Source of the DNA: an uncultured bacterium
Lineage (GTDB): Bacteria; Omnitrophota; Omnitrophia; Omnitrophales; Abzuiibacteriaceae
NCBI GenBank assembly: GCA_964387845.1
Contig: CAYLXA010000008.1
Location: forward strand, 1 to 64,000
Length of the DNA stretch: 64,000 nucleotides
Reading direction: 5' to 3'
Shown: positions 29,370 through 56,505 of the stretch, one piece after another
How the letters are laid out: every line of letters starts with the position of its first letter
Numbering within the stretch: position 1 is the first letter of the stretch
Translations under genes and position numbers: made by a program
The notes under the pieces: generated by a model
Told to the model about the DNA's origin: nothing
Database searches by the model: none
The model's input: only the letters and a program-made list of their open reading frames with translations

Positions 29370-29428
29370 GTCATCCTGAACGAAGTGAAGGATCTAAGAC
29401 CTAGATTCTTCGCTCCGCTCAGAATGAC
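29370..29428. repeat. MITE-like hairpin repeat, empty copy A (arms GTCATCCTGAACGAAGTGAAGGATCT / AGATTCTTCGCTCCGCTCAGAATGAC)
   Basis: Imperfect 26-bp inverted repeat with a 7-nt loop, between convergent genes. The same arms recur at 49640-49718 and flank the GIY-YIG gene at 54509-54867. Confidence 0.6.
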
Positions 29429-49566: not shown

Positions 49567-49639
49567 AATCCGGTTTGCATTGAATCCGATTGTGAAATTT
49601 TATAAAATGACACCGGAATTATTGATTGTTAATAGTTGT

Positions 49640-49718
49640 GTCATCCTGAACGAAGTGAAGGATCTAAGTTCGTAGACCCTTCGCTCTGCTCAGGGTGACA
49701 GGAGTTGCTCAGGATGAC
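49640..49718. repeat. MITE-like hairpin repeat, empty copy B
   Basis: The left arm GTCATCCTGAACGAAGTGAAGGATCT is identical to copy A. The right arm CCCTTCGCTCTGCTCAGGGTGAC is followed by a partial tandem reiteration GTTGCTCAGGATGAC. Confidence 0.6.
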
Positions 49719-49741
49719 ATTTTAATTAGGGAGGTAATCAC

Positions 49742-50452: not shown

Positions 50453-52087
50453 ATGAGCCTTTTCTGGATTGCGCTTTTTGTTTGCGCGGTTTTCTTGGCG
50501 GCTTATTGGACCTACGGACGGTTCTTAAGCCGCCATTTTTCTTTAAATCCAAGAGCCAAAACGCCTGCCTGCGAGATTAATGACGGTGTGGATTATGTTC
50601 CCGCCGAGAAAAACTTCCTTCTCAGCCAGCATTTTTCCGCGATTTCTGCCGCAGGGCCGATCGCTGGGCCGATCATTGCCGCCGTTTGGTTTGGCTGGCT
50701 GCCGGTGCTTTTATGGATTGTGTTAGGCGCGATTTTCTTCGGTGCTGTGCATGATTTTTCAAGTCTCGTCAATTCCGTCCGCCACCGCGCATTGTCAATC
50801 GTCGAAATTGTGCACGAATATTTAGGCCGGCGCGGTTATTTACTTTTTTCTGCTTTTGTTTGGCTGTCTTTGATTTACGTTATTACCGCTTTTGCTGATT
50901 TAACGAGCAATTCATTTGTCAATCCCGAACTGGGCGGCGGTGTTGCGGCTTCCTCAACTTTATATTTATTGATCGGCTTGGCGATGGGAATCGCGCTTTA
51001 TAAATTTCGGATGCCGCTAGGGCTCGCAACCGCCATTTTTCTTCCGCTCGTCATTTTCGCGATCTGGTTTGGCCAATATATTCCGATCGTGCTTCCGCAA
51101 CATACCTGGAACCTAATTTTATTGGTTTATTGTTTTATCGCTTCCGTGATTCCGGTATGGCTTTTGCTCCAGCCGCGCGGATTTTTGGGCGGATTTTTTC
51201 TCTATGTGACGCTTGCGGCCGGCCTCATCGGTCTTTTCTTGGGCGGGGAAACGATCCAATATCCGGCCTTCATCGGATTTAAAAGCGAAAAGGGTTTACC
51301 GCTTTTTCCGATTTTATTCGTGACGGTTGCCTGCGGCGCTTGTTCCGGATTTCACGGGATTGTGAGTTCAGGGACAACATCCAAGCAAATTGCGAAGGAG
51401 CCGGACTGCCGGATGATCGGTTATGGCGGCATGCTTTTGGAAGGTGTTGTGGCTTTGATTTCGCTTGCGACTGTGATGATTCTTGCGAAAGGTGATGCGC
51501 TCGTATCCGGTTCACCCGATCAAATTTACGCCGAAGGCCTCAGCCGTTTTGTAAGCAATTTCGGAATTCCGCGCGAATTTGCGCGTTCCTTCGCGCTTTT
51601 GGCTTTCACGACTTTCATTTATGACACACTCGATGTCGCAACGCGGCTTGCGCGTTATATTTTTCAAGAGGTAACCGGCTGGAAAAGCAATTGGGGAAAG
51701 TACGCCGCAACGTTTATCAGTCTTCTGATCCCGTTTTTTTGTGTCAGCATGAAATCGGTGGATGCTGCTGGCCATGCCGTTTCGGCGTGGCGGATTTTCT
51801 GGACGGTTTTCGGCACTTCCAATCAGCTTTTGGCGGCACTCACGCTCATGATGCTGACCGTTTGGCTTGTGAAAATTAATAAACCGTGGTGGATGAGCGG
51901 AATTCCGATGATTTTTATGTTTACGATGACCGTTTGGTCTTTATTTCTGATGGCTCAGCCGATGCTTTCCGGCTGGTTTTCTGGGAATTTTAGGCTGGAT
52001 TTGGTGGGTTCCGTATCGATCGTTCTTTTTGTCCTTACCGCGTTATTGATTGGGGAAGTGTTGAAATTGAAGAAAATATCGCATTAG
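50453..52087 (+). CDS. cstA: Carbon starvation protein CstA family transporter
   Basis: QHFSAISAAGPIAGPIIAAVWFGWLPVLLWIVLGAIFFGAVHDF matches the conserved CstA core. 544 aa. Confidence 0.8.
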   Translation: MSLFWIALFVCAVFLAAYWTYGRFLSRHFSLNPRAKTPACEINDGVDYVPAEKNFLLSQHFSAISAAGPIAGPIIAAVWFGWLPVLLWIVLGAIFFGAVHDFSSLVNSVRHRALSIVEIVHEYLGRRGYLLFSAFVWLSLIYVITAFADLTSNSFVNPELGGGVAASSTLYLLIGLAMGIALYKFRMPLGLATAIFLPLVIFAIWFGQYIPIVLPQHTWNLILLVYCFIASVIPVWLLLQPRGFLGGFFLYVTLAAGLIGLFLGGETIQYPAFIGFKSEKGLPLFPILFVTVACGACSGFHGIVSSGTTSKQIAKEPDCRMIGYGGMLLEGVVALISLATVMILAKGDALVSGSPDQIYAEGLSRFVSNFGIPREFARSFALLAFTTFIYDTLDVATRLARYIFQEVTGWKSNWGKYAATFISLLIPFFCVSMKSVDAAGHAVSAWRIFWTVFGTSNQLLAALTLMMLTVWLVKINKPWWMSGIPMIFMFTMTVWSLFLMAQPMLSGWFSGNFRLDLVGSVSIVLFVLTALLIGEVLKLKKISH

Positions 52088-52892
52088 GCAATTCCAAGTA
52101 TTTCCGCCCCTCCTCCTTCTTTCCGCGCTTGATACAGCCCTCTCCGTAAATTTTGCATTTTGCTTCTAATTCTTTAAGCGCCAAGCCTGTTTGCTTTTCA
52201 TCTAAAATTCCTGATTTTAATATTTTTTCGATTGCTTGAATTCGGTAAAAATCCAAATTCGAAATTGTATGTGATAGTTGATCCTTGTGTCCGCCGTATT
52301 TGATGACCAATCTTTCTTTGATTAAATGAATCGGAAAACGCGCAGCGACGCGCAGCCATAAATCGTAATCTTCACAAGCAGGGAAGGATTCATCGAAGTT
52401 CCCCACGATGTCGAACAATTTCCGCCTCATCATTACAGCGGATGGGCTGACAATACATAATGGAAGACATTCTTTAAAAATCCACCCGCCAACTTTTTGA
52501 TGCTTCTTCAAAGGATTCAAATGTTTTCCGTTCCGAATCCAAATTTCATCAGTCTGACAAATCATCGCATCCGGATTGTTTTCGAAGAACTCGACCTGCC
52601 GTTCCAATTTTTTCGGCTTCCATTCATCATCCGAATCCAGAAACGCGATGAAATCGCCCTTGGCGTGTTCCAGCCCTGTGTTTCTGGCTTTACTGACACC
52701 TTGATTTTCTTTGTGAATCAGAGTGAGATGAGGATGATGTTCCAGATTGTGGACGGTTTGGTCGGTCGAGCCGTCATCAACTACGATGACTTCGAAATGT
52801 CTGTAAGTTTGCTTAAAAACCGACTCAAGCGCTCTGTTAAGCAGTTTCACGCGGTTATAGGTTGGAATAATGACGCTGACGAACGGATTCAT
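52035..52892 (-). CDS. Family-2 glycosyltransferase
   Basis: VSVIIPTYNRVKLLNRALESVFKQTYRHFEVIVVDDGSTD plus a DSDDEW DxD motif. It overlaps the cstA 3' end convergently by 53 nt. Confidence 0.8.
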   Translation of the reverse strand: MNPFVSVIIPTYNRVKLLNRALESVFKQTYRHFEVIVVDDGSTDQTVHNLEHHPHLTLIHKENQGVSKARNTGLEHAKGDFIAFLDSDDEWKPKKLERQVEFFENNPDAMICQTDEIWIRNGKHLNPLKKHQKVGGWIFKECLPLCIVSPSAVMMRRKLFDIVGNFDESFPACEDYDLWLRVAARFPIHLIKERLVIKYGGHKDQLSHTISNLDFYRIQAIEKILKSGILDEKQTGLALKELEAKCKIYGEGCIKRGKKEEGRKYLELPNAIFSSISTLPQSITR

Positions 52893-52998
52893 AAGTCTAA
52901 ATATATCATAAAGTTATAACAGAAAACCAGAATGGCTATTTAAGGGCATTTTCTATATAATAATGGCTCTCTTTAACCTTAACCAATCTGAGCCCTAA

Positions 52999-53559
52999 AT
53001 GCTGACAAGTCAGTCGATTAAGTCGTATTTAAAAGCGCTTTCAAGCGATAGCCCGACGCCCGGAGGCGGGAGTTCGTCTGCACTTGTGGCAGCCATGGGA
53101 ACAGGGCTTCTATTAATGGTGGCCAAAATTGCGCGCCGGAAATTATCAAAAATAGAGCAAAAGGCGCTTGATAAGGTCATTAAATTACTCACCAAATGCT
53201 TGCGCGATATGGAAGCCGTCATTGACTTGGACGTCAAAGTGTATGATGCGGTGATGGCTGCTTATAAAAAGAAGGATGAAGCAAAAATTGAATCTGCGCT
53301 CGGCAATTCATTCCGGCTTCAGGCGGATCTGGCGTTCTTAATCGCGATGTCCAAAGAAACACTGCCGGCACTGTTTAAAGTTGTGAAGGGCTCGATCGGG
53401 AATGATTTGATCGTCGCGCGCGCATTTTTGGACGGCGCATTTCAAGGCGCGGTTGCGACCGCGAGAATTAATGTGAAATACATGCAATCGGCAAAGAAAG
53501 ATCATTTTAACCGTGCGCTTCAGCAGCTTGAGAAGCGGTATTACGGGATAAAAGCATAA
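52999..53559 (+). CDS. Formiminotransferase-cyclodeaminase C-terminal-domain protein (methenyl-THF cyclohydrolase-like, FTCD_C)
   Basis: LKALSSDSPTPGGGSSSALVAAMGTGLLLMVAKI matches the FTCD_C core. Adjacent to folD. Confidence 0.75.
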   Translation: MLTSQSIKSYLKALSSDSPTPGGGSSSALVAAMGTGLLLMVAKIARRKLSKIEQKALDKVIKLLTKCLRDMEAVIDLDVKVYDAVMAAYKKKDEAKIESALGNSFRLQADLAFLIAMSKETLPALFKVVKGSIGNDLIVARAFLDGAFQGAVATARINVKYMQSAKKDHFNRALQQLEKRYYGIKA

Positions 53560-53645: not shown

Positions 53646-54518
53646 ATGACTGCCAAACTTTTAGAAGGAAAAATCATAGCCGAAAAGCTGCAGAAGAAAA
53701 TTGCAGCAGAGGTGCGCGATCTGACGTCCAAAACAAAGCAAACGCCCAAAATGGTGGCAATCCGGATTAATGAAGACCAAGCCTCAGAGCTTTATTTGAA
53801 ATCACAGCGGAAAGCCGCGGAGCTTGCCGGCATGAAGCATGAAACGATTACGATTTTGGGTGCGACCGAAAGACAATTAATTCAGGCCATCGAAAAAGCC
53901 AATAAAGACGTATCCATTCATGGCATCATGATTCAAATGCCGCTTCCTCAGGATTTTCATCTCGAAAATATTTTGGATTCCATCGATCACAAGAAAGACA
54001 TCGAAGGCGTCACGAGTTTTAATTTAGGGCAATTGGTTCTCAAGAAAGACAAATTGGTTCCGTGCACGGCGCTTTCCTGCATCACTTTGATTGAAGAGAC
54101 AGGCGAGAAGCTGCGCGGCAAAGAAGCTGTGATCGTGGGCTCCAGCAAAGTCGTTGGGCGCCCGGTTTCGCTTTTACTTTTAGACCGGATGGCAACCGCG
54201 ACGGTTTGTCATATTGCGACTTCAGAAGCCGGGAAGCTTGAATCGCATGTGAAGCGTGCGGATATTTTGGTGGTGGCGGTCGGAAAAGAAAATGTAATTC
54301 CCGGGAAATGGGTCAAAGAAGGCGCGATTGTGATTGATGTCGGGATTAACCGTGTGAACGGAAAAACCGTGGGCGATGTGGAATTTGAAGAAGCAAAATC
54401 CAGAGCCAAATTCATTACGCCGGTCCCGGGCGGCGTGGGCCCAATGACGGTGACGATTTTAATGCACAATTTGGTAACGGCGTACAGGTGGCAGACAGAG
54501 AATGCGTCGTCATTCTGA
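53646..54518 (+). CDS. folD: Bifunctional 5,10-methylene-THF dehydrogenase / methenyl-THF cyclohydrolase FolD
   Basis: MTAKLLEGK..., ...PVPGGVGPMTVTILMHNLV. The last three codons and the stop (SSF*) are supplied by the left arm of the hairpin repeat. Confidence 0.9.
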   Translation: MTAKLLEGKIIAEKLQKKIAAEVRDLTSKTKQTPKMVAIRINEDQASELYLKSQRKAAELAGMKHETITILGATERQLIQAIEKANKDVSIHGIMIQMPLPQDFHLENILDSIDHKKDIEGVTSFNLGQLVLKKDKLVPCTALSCITLIEETGEKLRGKEAVIVGSSKVVGRPVSLLLLDRMATATVCHIATSEAGKLESHVKRADILVVAVGKENVIPGKWVKEGAIVIDVGINRVNGKTVGDVEFEEAKSRAKFITPVPGGVGPMTVTILMHNLVTAYRWQTENASSF

Positions 54519-54888
54519 GCGTAGCGAAGAATCTCTGTTTCGATGAAGAAGGGTTACGTTTATTTGCTTGCGAACAAAGTTAACACTGTAATTTATATCG
54601 GAGTTACAAGCAATCTTGCAAAAAGAATTTGGGAACATAAAAAGAAGCTGGTAGAAGGATTTACAAAGAAATATAACGTAGACAAACTAGTTTATTATGA
54701 AATTTTCGAGTTAGTTGTTGATGCAATAAAAAGAGAAAAGCAAATTAAAGGTTGGGTCAGAAAAAAGAAAGTGGACTTAGTCGAATCACTTAACCCTAAT
54801 TGGAACGATCTATACAAGAACTTAAACGAATAAGATGTACGAGATCCTTCGCTTCGCTCAGGATGACGGGCGAAGGGTTCAGGATGAC
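54509..54888. mobile_element. Putative small mobile cassette: a GIY-YIG nuclease ORF embedded between the two 26-bp arms (terminal inverted repeats) of the same hairpin-repeat family
   Basis: The left arm GTCATTCTGAGCGTAGCGAAGAATCT (54509-54534) is the complement of the right arm AGATCCTTCGCTTCGCTCAGGATGAC (54842-54867; 23/26 match), which is followed by the partial reiteration GGGCGAAGGGTTCAGGATGAC. The interior is about 33% GC against about 48% in the flanks. Confidence 0.5.
54543..54833 (+). CDS. GIY-YIG domain nuclease (UPF0213-type, 96 aa)
   Basis: GYVYLL...IYIGVT.NL..R...H is the GIY-YIG motif. It fills the space between the two repeat arms with 8-nt gaps on both sides. AT-rich. Confidence 0.8.
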   Translation: MKKGYVYLLANKVNTVIYIGVTSNLAKRIWEHKKKLVEGFTKKYNVDKLVYYEIFELVVDAIKREKQIKGWVRKKKVDLVESLNPNWNDLYKNLNE

Positions 54889-54889
54889 G

Positions 54890-55684
54890 ATGAAAACCTC
54901 AATCCAACACATCCTTAATAAGAAAAAAGCCAAACAGAAAATCACGGCGCTTAGCACCTACGATTTTGCATTTGCGAAGCTCGTCGATCAATCAGGTGCG
55001 GATATTGTTTTGGTCGGCGATTCCGTCGGCATGGTCCAGCTCGGTTACGAATCCACGTTGCTTGTGACTTTGGATGAGATGATTCATCACACGAAGGCGG
55101 TTTCGCGCGCCGTAAAGCGTGCGCTTGTTGTGGCGGATATGCCGTATAAAACTTACGAAACAGCCGTTTCGGCGATTAAATCTGCACGGCGGTTTATTGA
55201 AGATGCCAAAGCTGATGCGGTGAAGTTAGAAGGCGGCGAGAAAGTTGTGAAGCAGGCCAAGGCACTCACACGGCTGGGTATTACAGTCATGGGCCATCTC
55301 GGAATGTTGCCGCAGTCGATTGAGAAGACAGGCGGCTATAAGGTTCAGGGTAAGGACAAAAAGCAAGCCGATCAAATTTTAAAAGATGCAAAAGCACTCG
55401 AAGAAGCCGGAGCATTTTCTATCGTTTTGGAATGCATTCCGTATGAGCTTGCGAAGAAAATCACGGAATCCATAAAAATTCCGACCATCGGAATCGGCGC
55501 CGGGCCTTATTGTGACGGACAAATTTTAGTGCTGCATGATTTACTTGGGTTTAAATCGAGTGTCAGCCCGCGCTTTGTGAGGCGCTACATGGATTTTGAT
55601 GCGCTGGCCAGTAAAGCTCTGGAGCAATTCCGCCATGATGTCGAAACCGCCAAATTTCCGTCTCTAAAAGAGAGTTTTGAGTAA
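54890..55684 (+). CDS. panB: 3-methyl-2-oxobutanoate hydroxymethyltransferase PanB
   Basis: TALSTYDFAFAKLVDQSGADIVLVGDSVGMV is the typical PanB N-terminus. The track ORF 54800.. has a 30-aa leader (SFASLRMTGEGFRMT) that is just a translation of the repeat right arm. Confidence 0.85.
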   Translation: MKTSIQHILNKKKAKQKITALSTYDFAFAKLVDQSGADIVLVGDSVGMVQLGYESTLLVTLDEMIHHTKAVSRAVKRALVVADMPYKTYETAVSAIKSARRFIEDAKADAVKLEGGEKVVKQAKALTRLGITVMGHLGMLPQSIEKTGGYKVQGKDKKQADQILKDAKALEEAGAFSIVLECIPYELAKKITESIKIPTIGIGAGPYCDGQILVLHDLLGFKSSVSPRFVRRYMDFDALASKALEQFRHDVETAKFPSLKESFE

Positions 55685-56505
55685 TGACCAGTTCCTATCT
55701 GATCCTTATTTTGCTAATCGTTCTTTATGCGGTTTCGTTTCTGGTACATTTAGGGAATTTTCTTAACAAAGAAACCAGATCGATCAATCCCAACCTGCTT
55801 TTTGAAATCGGATTCCTGCTCCACACATTTTTAATTTTCACGGAAGCGCGCGAAACCCAATTTTTTCTTCCGGTAACGACTTTCCGGGAAGTTTTGATCT
55901 TTTTTGCCTGGTCGCTCGCGTTTGTGTTTGTGATTTTACTCAGGCGAATCAAGCAGGAAAGTTTCGGAATTGTGCTCATTCCATTTTTGCTGAGTTTTCT
56001 GGCGGTCGCGCTCGTGATTGAAGACGGAAAAGCTATTCCGACGACTTATTTCAGCGACCATTATTTTTTGGTCCACATTTTATCGGCCTTTTTTGCTTAC
56101 GCCAGTTTCACACTTTCTTTCGTGGCGTCAGTTTTGTATTTAATTCAATCGCGCCTTATAAAATCCAAGCAGCTTGGCAGTTTTTACCACAAATTGCCGC
56201 CTTTAAATGAGCTGGAAAAATTCATTGTGTATGCAATTGCATGGGGCCTTGTGCTGCTTGGCATCGGGATTTTGAGCGGGTTTTTGTGGGCGCACAATTC
56301 GTTTAAATCTTTTTCGCTTTTGGAACCAAAAACGATTTCCAGCCTGGTGACGTGGCTGGCGTACGGCATTATTTCCTTTCTTTACCGTTTTTCCATTGTG
56401 CGCGGAAAACGGAACGCCAAAGTCGTTTCGCTGACGTTTGCACTTGTTTTGTTTACGTTTTTAGGAACCAGTTTGTTTCAAAATACTTTACATATCGGAA
56501 TGTAA
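55684..56505 (+). CDS. hemX: HemX-like cytochrome-c-assembly-family membrane protein (CcsA-like, degenerate WWD), upstream of hemA
   Basis: Eight TM helices. Degenerate WAHNSFKSFSLLEPKT at the WWD position. Position and fold match B. subtilis hemX in hemAXCDBL. Confidence 0.55.
   Translation: MTSSYLILILLIVLYAVSFLVHLGNFLNKETRSINPNLLFEIGFLLHTFLIFTEARETQFFLPVTTFREVLIFFAWSLAFVFVILLRRIKQESFGIVLIPFLLSFLAVALVIEDGKAIPTTYFSDHYFLVHILSAFFAYASFTLSFVASVLYLIQSRLIKSKQLGSFYHKLPPLNELEKFIVYAIAWGLVLLGIGILSGFLWAHNSFKSFSLLEPKTISSLVTWLAYGIISFLYRFSIVRGKRNAKVVSLTFALVLFTFLGTSLFQNTLHIGM

Follow-up and report, generated by a model that had tools for sequence, protein, structure and literature searches.

Ssn proteins are single-domain GIY-YIG nucleases of about 94 amino acids (CDD cd10448) that, as monomers, bind a repeated hairpin motif only as single-stranded DNA (ssDNA) and cut it a few nucleotides 5′ of its GTCAT head (Chenal et al., Nat Commun 2025, PMC11893778). 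The characterized enzymes cut neither double-stranded DNA (dsDNA) nor the reverse strand, and Ssn homologues cut in vitro beside their own motif, which is named NTS in Neisseria (CGTCATTCCCGCGMAVGCGGGAATCYRG) and SRM in general (PMC11893778). By the published motif search, an SRM lies near 71% of Ssn homologues, on both sides in 42%, and 81% of genomes with >200 motifs encode Ssn (PMC11893778). The same authors likened the NTS-ssnA-NTS arrangement to an insertion sequence and used a tblastn E < 1e-10 to SsnA as the criterion for the family (PMC11893778). Here, we examine a 64-kb stretch of DNA from an uncultured bacterium (contig CAYLXA010000008.1, positions 1 to 64,000; hereafter the window), in which a small GIY-YIG nuclease gene, ssn, stands between two inverted repeat arms at the junction of folD and panB. 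From sequence comparison, we put at roughly 80% the probability that this locus is an Ssn-SRM system, with a cd10448-type nuclease, two cognate SRM copies, and gene-less tail-to-tail SRM pairs elsewhere. A preliminary description, made from the letters of the window, did not know the arrangement as a described class of element. The NTS-ssnA-NTS arrangement of PMC11893778 shows that this kind of system is already described, and the window locus adds a member to it.

Like SsnA and NTS of Neisseria, the window combines a GIY-YIG protein of ~95 amino acids with inverted hairpin motifs of 25-30 nt close by, and its motif also occurs without the gene. The arms and NTS share a CGTCAT head and an ATC tail. 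Between these ends, the window has a stem-loop of the form ATYCT-GAG-CGNAG-CGA-AGRAT (5 bp plus G·A/A·G) and not the GC-rich ATTCCCGCG palindrome of NTS. The motif tails point toward the gene in the window, whereas the heads do so at the gonococcal locus. Unlike the Neisseria system, the window cassette has a documented empty allele and a documented horizontal transfer, and its host is an uncultured Omnitrophota-like bacterium.

The identity of the nuclease is indicated by several searches. The window protein matches the Pfam GIY-YIG domain (PF01541) at E 8e-18 over residues 3-76, with no second domain, and a tblastn search of PLSDB with this protein retrieved Neisseria gonorrhoeae chromosomes at E 1e-20. 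The gonococcal SsnA orthologue is 47% identical to it over 89 amino acids without a gap (BLASTP pairwise E 1e-30); it is encoded by an ORF of 94 amino acids with Tyr6, Tyr17, and Glu64 and has a canonical NTS upstream and another directly downstream. Residues Y7, Y18, and E65 of the window protein align with Y6, Y17, and E64 of SsnA, which were mutated in PMC11893778, and are invariant across an alignment of 25 homologues. Membership in UPF0213 (YhbQ/BH0048), the label given in the preliminary description, was rejected, as the best match to BH0048 (1zg2) has an E of 0.1.

Homologues of the window protein are numerous (4348 matches, the best 120 being 63-100% identical), remarkably conserved, and widely spread. 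A genome collection contains 80 homologous loci at 49-64% identity from many unrelated lineages, ranging from candidate phyla radiation (CPR) bacteria to Cyanobacteria and Proteobacteria, and identity within the family is 50-72% across many unrelated bacterial lineages. In 2.9 million viral contigs, homologous loci number only 30, and a phage origin of ssn is not indicated. NCBIfam holds no specific model for the protein, a sequence search of the PDB returned no solved close homologue, and PADLOC, which does not include the gene, gave no defense system. In passing, we note that PLSDB entries NZ_CP119140.1 and NZ_CP119142.1 are N. gonorrhoeae chromosomes of 2.17 Mb each, mislabelled as plasmids.

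The two arms, GTCATTCTGAGCGTAGCGAAGAATCT at 54509-54534 (+) and GTCATCCTGAGCGAAGCGAAGGATCT at 54842-54867 (-), are identical at 23/26 positions and bracket the 291-bp ssn ORF (96 amino acids, 54543-54833) with 8-nt gaps on both sides, just as the preliminary description had placed them. A search allowing 3 mismatches finds three arm sites in the window and none in 100 shuffles, and a looser mismatch search recovers all six arms within the 64 kb. A seed-based repeat search with default seeds returned no inverted repeat, because exact matches between the arms extend over 7 nt at most. At 31.3%, the GC content of the ssn ORF is low relative to folD (46.8%) and panB (47.5%), which confirms the contrast seen earlier. 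The window contains one copy of ssn.

Both neighboring genes are affected by the arms in the way first described. FolD ends in …ENASSF* inside the left arm, which supplies the last codons and the stop; in relatives with an empty site, the protein ends in …WQVEK* (L202, L204) or …WQIGE* (L207). An extension of panB starting at TTG-54800, created by the right arm, is spurious, as the PanB N-termini of the relatives align at ATG 54890. The AGGA of the partial motif copy at 54869-54889 is located 5 nt before this ATG.

To describe the surroundings of related genes, we counted repeat units within 150 bp of ssn homologues at 81 loci, comprising the 80 from the genome collection and L001. A unit was defined by structure (GTCAT and the next three bases, a spacer of at most ~40 nt, and then the complement of the three bases followed by ATC), a definition that gives ~1 expected match in the shuffled window. 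Units are present at 70/81 loci, on both sides of the gene in 46 and on one side in 24, with neither side occupied in the remaining 11; the association of arms and GIY-YIG gene suspected from the window is thus recurrent. It is also oriented. The nearest upstream unit lies on the + strand at 50/60 loci and the nearest downstream unit on the - strand at 47/56, giving a (+,-) pair in 37/46. The gaps have a median of ~15 nt on the start-codon side and ~7 nt on the stop-codon side, and the window is typical in this respect.

The SRM variant of the window, GTCATYCTGAGCGNAGCGAAGRATC, is also found at L001, L006, L023, L025, and L057, and L063 and L077 have it together with an expanded form. Elsewhere, there are intermediates that contain an additional inner hairpin, and the canonical GC-rich NTS is present at L011, L029, and L056. 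The homologues at L056, L029, and L011, which are flanked by near-canonical NTS, are 54-62% identical to the window protein. As common SRM variants escape the published search motif, the repeat association of the family is probably underestimated.

Comparison of the units shows that each arm has a hairpin plan of its own. The 25-nt unit begins with GTC and ends with C; in between, a 5-bp stem is followed by tandem G·A/A·G, a closing pair, and a 5-nt loop, with pairs A4-T24, T5-A23, 6-22, 7-21, 8-20, and 11-17, invariant G9·A19 and A10·G18, and a loop at 12-16. The two arms differ at 5, 6, and 3 positions in the three window dimers. Ten of these 14 differences fall at complementary pairs within an arm (6/22, 5/23, 11/17), and the other four are in the loop. 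To obtain an unbiased sample, metagenomes were scanned with GTCATNNNGANCGNAGNGANNNATC, in which these positions were left free; this yielded 148 units with 45 distinct sequences. Among these 45, Watson-Crick pairs are formed by 6-22 in 43 (T-A 20, C-G 12, G-C 11), by 7-21 in 41, by 8-20 in all 45 (C-G 23, T-A 22), and by 11-17 in 41. Over the 45 units, 97.4% of paired cells are complementary compared to 77.7% in shuffles, and the covariation score is 0.64 compared to 0.25 (0/500 shuffles reach the observed value in either case); partners slid out of register pair in 19-48%. Four pairs of the unit show double changes, and G·T pairs are nearly absent from its stem.

These patterns indicate that the arms are independently folding recognition motifs and not terminal inverted repeats of the transposon type, as had first been proposed; each arm folds independently, with compensation inside the arm. 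Because each 25-nt arm is its own hairpin, the 60-bp hairpin can be described as two units placed tail to tail. The covariation provides comparative evidence, at the level of base pairs, of what the enzyme likely recognizes.

Besides the ssn cassette, the 64 kb holds two gene-less dimers and two partial heads, with 0 expected. Both hairpins reported as empty copies are present, although the second ends at 49699, the adjoining 49700-49718 being a separate partial copy. The left arms, reported as identical, are so between the two gene-less hairpins and differ at 5/26 positions from the ssn left arm. The dimer at 49640-49699 is missing from the orthologous spacer of a relative, L208. In motif-selected metagenomic loci, adjacent units are tail to tail in 52/84 pairs, with gaps of mostly 8-60 nt, and an ssn-like gene is present in 4/120 loci only. 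Gene-less dimers are therefore the common form and are oriented as around the gene, and gene-less copies far outnumber loaded ones. Rfam at gathering thresholds gave no match in the 64 kb, and no T-run follows the two gene-less hairpins.

Head-only copies, consisting of the first 10-12 nt of the motif, precede full units of the same strand by 18-26 nt, both in the window (54869-54889, 49700-49718) and at L017, L024, L030, L057, L063, L094, L165, L217, and others. We tallied 53 upstream and 3 on the 3′ side; a recount with a slightly different locus set gave 55 in 31 loci. These copies often read head + CCCTTCGC and are located on the side where Ssn enzymes cut. The dRS3/NIME arrays of Neisseria are similar in consisting of short palindromic repeats with conserved ends and short intervening segments, but in the arrays seen here the repeated pieces are heads cut down to 10-12 nt, and these stand on the 5′ side only. 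We found no description of such arrays. As a further side observation, a different long palindrome (GGGGACGGTCCTGTAGGGGACAGGCCT…) is found in the TerC-Bax1-I spacer of L208 (2951-3099), where the window (49567-49741) has the SRM dimer. Both L208 and L001 carry a TTGC-type SRM dimer beside a glycosyltransferase gene, so SRM types differ between related lineages.

Several observations weigh against assigning the locus to the Ssn-SRM systems. None of the six window units matches the published SRM motif HGTCWYN(0-2)YYVSBRHN(0-5)WNVSBRGN(0-2)RNCYNB, whose sole match in the window is a chance match inside folD, and the published motif matches within 200 bp at 19/81 homologous loci only. At the gonococcal ssnA locus (L257 1384-1410, 1803-1830, 1877-1905), the NTS heads face the gene (-,+), the reverse of the orientation in the window. 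With nearest-neighbor DNA parameters, a lone unit folds only weakly as ssDNA (-1.6 to -3.7 kcal/mol, which does not surpass shuffles), and the dimer hairpin (-14 to -15.5 kcal/mol, z about -4) would compete with it. Because the energy of a lone unit is weak, the unit fold rests on the comparative evidence and not on energy. Motif abundance in the source genome was counted within 64 kb only, and the role known from Neisseria, modulation of natural transformation, may not apply to the organism of the window.

We compared the folD-panB junction in related genomes, a comparison that the preliminary description had proposed. The PanB homologues point to an Omnitrophota-like host, and four related lineages were retrieved. 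The closest, L202/L203 (two samples; PanB 92% identical to the window at the amino acid level), is empty, with folD and panB overlapping at ATGA (…GAGAAATGAAG…). L204-206/L208 (three samples, PanB 83%) is empty with the same ATGA overlap, and L207 (PanB 70%) is empty with a 29-nt spacer, whereas L001 (PanB 84%) is filled with the same cassette. An empty site is thus seen on five contigs from three lineages, one of them the closest relative. Because the outgroup shares both the empty state and the 14-residue PanB N-terminus, this state is ancestral.

At the nucleotide level, the empty alleles of L202/L203 and L204-206 read GAGAAATGAAR, and the filled ones read GAGAA/TGCGTCGTCAT…ATGACG/ATGAA, slashes marking the boundaries. 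An ATG is present at both junctions, which leaves the cassette boundaries ambiguous by 2-3 nt, and the empty site differs by one A (a single insertion site is available). In an alternative reading of the boundaries, ATG stands at both ends, each end being 3 nt 5′ of CGTCAT. These alternative ends roughly match the cut position of Ssn enzymes, which, at one site, is only a lead. The empty alleles contain no GTCAT-type motif.

The history of the cassette appears to be distinct from that of the flanking genes, whose tree groups the window with L202 and L001 with L204 (189 informative sites). A further 44 sites unite the filled alleles; they occur at background density everywhere but at 54494-54496 and 54888-54917, and both cassette flanks are free of host-tree sites (Fisher p = 3.5e-9, flanks together). 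Between the window and L001, identity at four-fold sites is 0.875 in ssn and 0.35-0.50 in folD, panB, and ccsA; at third positions, the values are 0.80 and 0.47-0.56, respectively. Because the silent-site identity of ssn exceeds that of the host genes, the two filled hosts must have split long before they came to share the cassette, which at silent sites is younger even than the window-L202 split in panB and ccsA. The gap between ssn and the host genes, taken together with the empty sites in relatives, indicates that the cassette was transferred horizontally into the folD-panB junction. The simplest reading is that the filled allele arose once and then spread horizontally into the same junction with 10-30 nt of flank. 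To judge from these comparisons, the 0.39-kb cassette is foreign DNA common to two diverged Omnitrophota-like lineages and placed precisely at a gene junction with translational coupling; its low GC content and the wide spread of the family were also counted toward a foreign origin.

Could such mobility be that of an autonomous transposon or an element like an insertion sequence (IS), with the arms as terminal inverted repeats, the GIY-YIG protein as transposase, and the gene-less hairpins as derivatives resembling miniature inverted-repeat transposable elements (MITEs)? This idea, which was also hypothesized by Chenal et al., has several points in its favor. The presence/absence boundaries are precise, the cassette has moved horizontally, tail-to-tail gene-less dimers greatly exceed loaded copies, the 49640 dimer is missing from L208, the ATG at both junctions could be a 3-nt target duplication, and an IS-like architecture was remarked in PMC11893778. 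The window, however, contains one ssn copy, and the sole ORF of the cassette encodes a 96-residue nuclease without a recognizable transposase. For two other Ssn proteins, identical copies from different samples (23 contigs for one, 10 for the other) always have one fixed context. The gene is also rare in viral contigs and absent from PADLOC, which was counted against both an active transposon and a homing enzyme. GIY-YIG enzymes hydrolyze DNA without a covalent intermediate able to rejoin it, and it is established knowledge that such chemistry cannot rejoin DNA. Because dsDNA and the reverse strand are left uncut by the characterized Ssn enzymes, inverted units leave one cleavable end per strand. 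The differences between arms are compensated within each arm, fitting a recognition hairpin over paired ends, and the filled alleles have 10-30 nt of host flank in common, pointing to recombinational transfer of an allele and not to independent transposition. We therefore regard a transposon of this type as unlikely.

Two groups of described elements bear on this comparison. REPIN-RAYT systems are alike in having a single-copy nuclease gene flanked by inverted palindromic repeats at one stable locus per population, and in having scattered repeats that are mostly inverted doublets able to form long ssDNA hairpins. The window enzyme is nevertheless a hydrolytic GIY-YIG protein and not a cleave-and-rejoin transposase of the HUH/Y1 (IS200-like) type, and the window cassette and its family show horizontal transfer, whereas REPIN-RAYT systems are described as mostly vertical. 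The peel-and-paste elements IS200/IS605 and their MITEs are likewise compact, have ends read as ssDNA hairpins, and have shorter gene-less derivatives. In contrast to these, the window has no transposase and no clear target-site duplication, its gene is not multi-copy, and its hairpins are inverted, such that the ends would be cleavable on opposite strands rather than on one.

A free-standing homing endonuclease would cut the empty folD-panB site (…TGGCAAGTAGAGAAATGAAGAAAG…), and repair would copy the cassette in, as in intronless homing. The same intergenic site is occupied in two lineages with empty sisters, short and apparently co-converted flanks are common to the filled alleles, the cassette is far younger than the host divergence, and the catalytic domain is of the GIY-YIG type. 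The 96-residue protein, however, has no DNA-binding domain, its characterized relatives have no dsDNA activity and recognize a motif carried by the cassette rather than the empty site, and the empty alleles have no GTCAT-type motif. The flanks could also have been whittled to size by successive rounds of ordinary recombination. T4 Seg enzymes carry a DNA-binding domain and cut the dsDNA of the empty allele, whereas Ssn has no extra domain and cuts ssDNA beside a motif carried by the cassette itself. In other respects, Seg genes and mobE-type intronless homing (PMC2790892 for the latter) resemble the window cassette, being located between conserved genes, present in some alleles and absent from others, and accompanied by shared flanks. 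Overall, we consider homing improbable. The suggestion in the preliminary description that the protein is a homing or insertion enzyme found no evidence, as its relatives cut ssDNA only and the gene is single copy at a fixed site in two populations.

That the hairpins are generic REP-like or terminator structures with a role at the level of RNA or chromosome structure, the adjacent GIY-YIG gene being incidental, is highly improbable: the dimers do occupy intergenic spacers directly after genes, their long hairpins have a stable fold (z about -4), and base-pair covariation alone cannot separate DNA from RNA hairpins, but a unit stands within 150 bp of 70/81 homologous genes from many unrelated lineages in a strongly preferred orientation with gaps of 0-20 nt, homologues cut next to their own motif in vitro, there is no T-run and no Rfam match, G·T pairs are nearly absent, and most genomes rich in the motif encode Ssn (81%; PMC11893778).

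If the locus is an Ssn-SRM system, analogy with the characterized enzymes predicts that a monomeric nuclease would bind its motif in ssDNA and hydrolyze it, the cut falling a few nucleotides 5′ of GTCAT. The predicted substrate is top-strand ssDNA carrying GCGTCGTCATTCTGAGCGTAGCGAAGAATCTCTG. With the units tail to tail, either strand, once exposed, would offer a single unit for cleavage. At folD-panB, the left unit provides folD with a new stop, and the AGGA on the right side of the cassette could act as the panB ribosome-binding site. Nicking of exposed ssDNA at the motifs may, as in Neisseria, restrict or reshape recombination of motif-bearing ssDNA, and it may stimulate repair or recombination by which the motifs and the cassette are copied. 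No observation here shows insertion to be driven by the nuclease.

A bolder proposal is that SRM-ssn-SRM and the gene-less dimers make up an element that propagates itself by a new kind of mechanism. We advance this idea only tentatively and think it rather unlikely to be correct. The ssDNA-specific, hydrolytic GIY-YIG enzyme would nick 5′ of each motif, where the cassette ends, host repair or recombination would then copy the cassette into gene junctions and multiply the motifs, and the head-only copies on the 5′ side would be the footprints of these events.

What is new here is the covariation at the level of the unit, a filled and empty allele with a dated transfer, and an SRM variant outside the published motif. 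A locus from an uncultured lineage is thereby placed in the Ssn/SRM family, which was experimentally described only in 2025. The pair of filled and empty alleles supplies what Chenal et al. only hypothesized and offers a defined substrate of 0.39 kb on which the mobility of Ssn cassettes, and its mode, can be tested. Programmable cutting of ssDNA gives Ssn enzymes a practical interest as well, and the window enzyme would represent a new specificity. The coordinates of the features are collected in Table 1.

Table 1. Features of the ssn cassette, its flanks, and the gene-less motif copies in the 64-kb window
Feature	Position	Strand	Remarks
Whole cassette (left SRM, ssn, right SRM, extra partial head)	54503..54889	+	Missing from empty alleles
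Left SRM unit, CGTCATTCTGAGCGTAGCGAAGAATCT	54508..54534	+	Head faces away from gene; encodes folD S-S-F and stop
ssn, single-domain GIY-YIG nuclease gene, Ssn family, 96 aa	54543..54833	+	Pfam PF01541 and SsnA identity
Right SRM unit, CGTCATCCTGAGCGAAGCGAAGGATCT	54842..54868	-	Tail toward gene
Head-only partial SRM copy, CGTCATCCTGAACCCTTCGCC	54869..54889	-	21-bp insertion relative to L001
folD	53646..54518	+	Likely start ATG 53646; 3′ end remodelled by cassette
panB	54890..55684	+	True start ATG 54890, from alignment of relatives' PanB N-termini
Left flank common to filled alleles only, co-transferred host sequence	54487..54502	+	Filled-vs-empty sites 54494-54496, no host-tree sites
Right flank common to filled alleles only, first ~9 panB codons including 3-nt indel	54890..54917	+	Eight filled-vs-empty sites 54888-54917, no host-tree sites
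Gene-less tail-to-tail SRM dimer, 7-nt loop	29370..29428	units 29370-29394 (+), 29404-29428 (-)	Starts 11 nt past stop of ORF 27248-29359
Gene-less tail-to-tail SRM dimer, 8-nt loop	49640..49699	units 49640-49664 (+), 49675-49699 (-)	Between TerC-like and Bax1-I-like genes
Head-only partial SRM copy, GTCATCCTGAGCAACTCCT	49700..49718	-	5′ of - unit

Two further differences between the relatives were observed away from the cassette. A gene for an FG-GAP/β-propeller protein of ~550-580 amino acids lies between the glycosyltransferase and FTCD_C genes of L001 (958-2700) and L208 (6461-8122) and is missing from the window (52035-52999 region). L202 carries an insertion of ~105 nt that bears a palindrome (1690-1795; window ~55681-55690), exactly at the overlapping panB stop and ccsA start (TAATG). 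It has an ATG at both junctions and gives this lineage a second case of a small insertion between translationally coupled genes.

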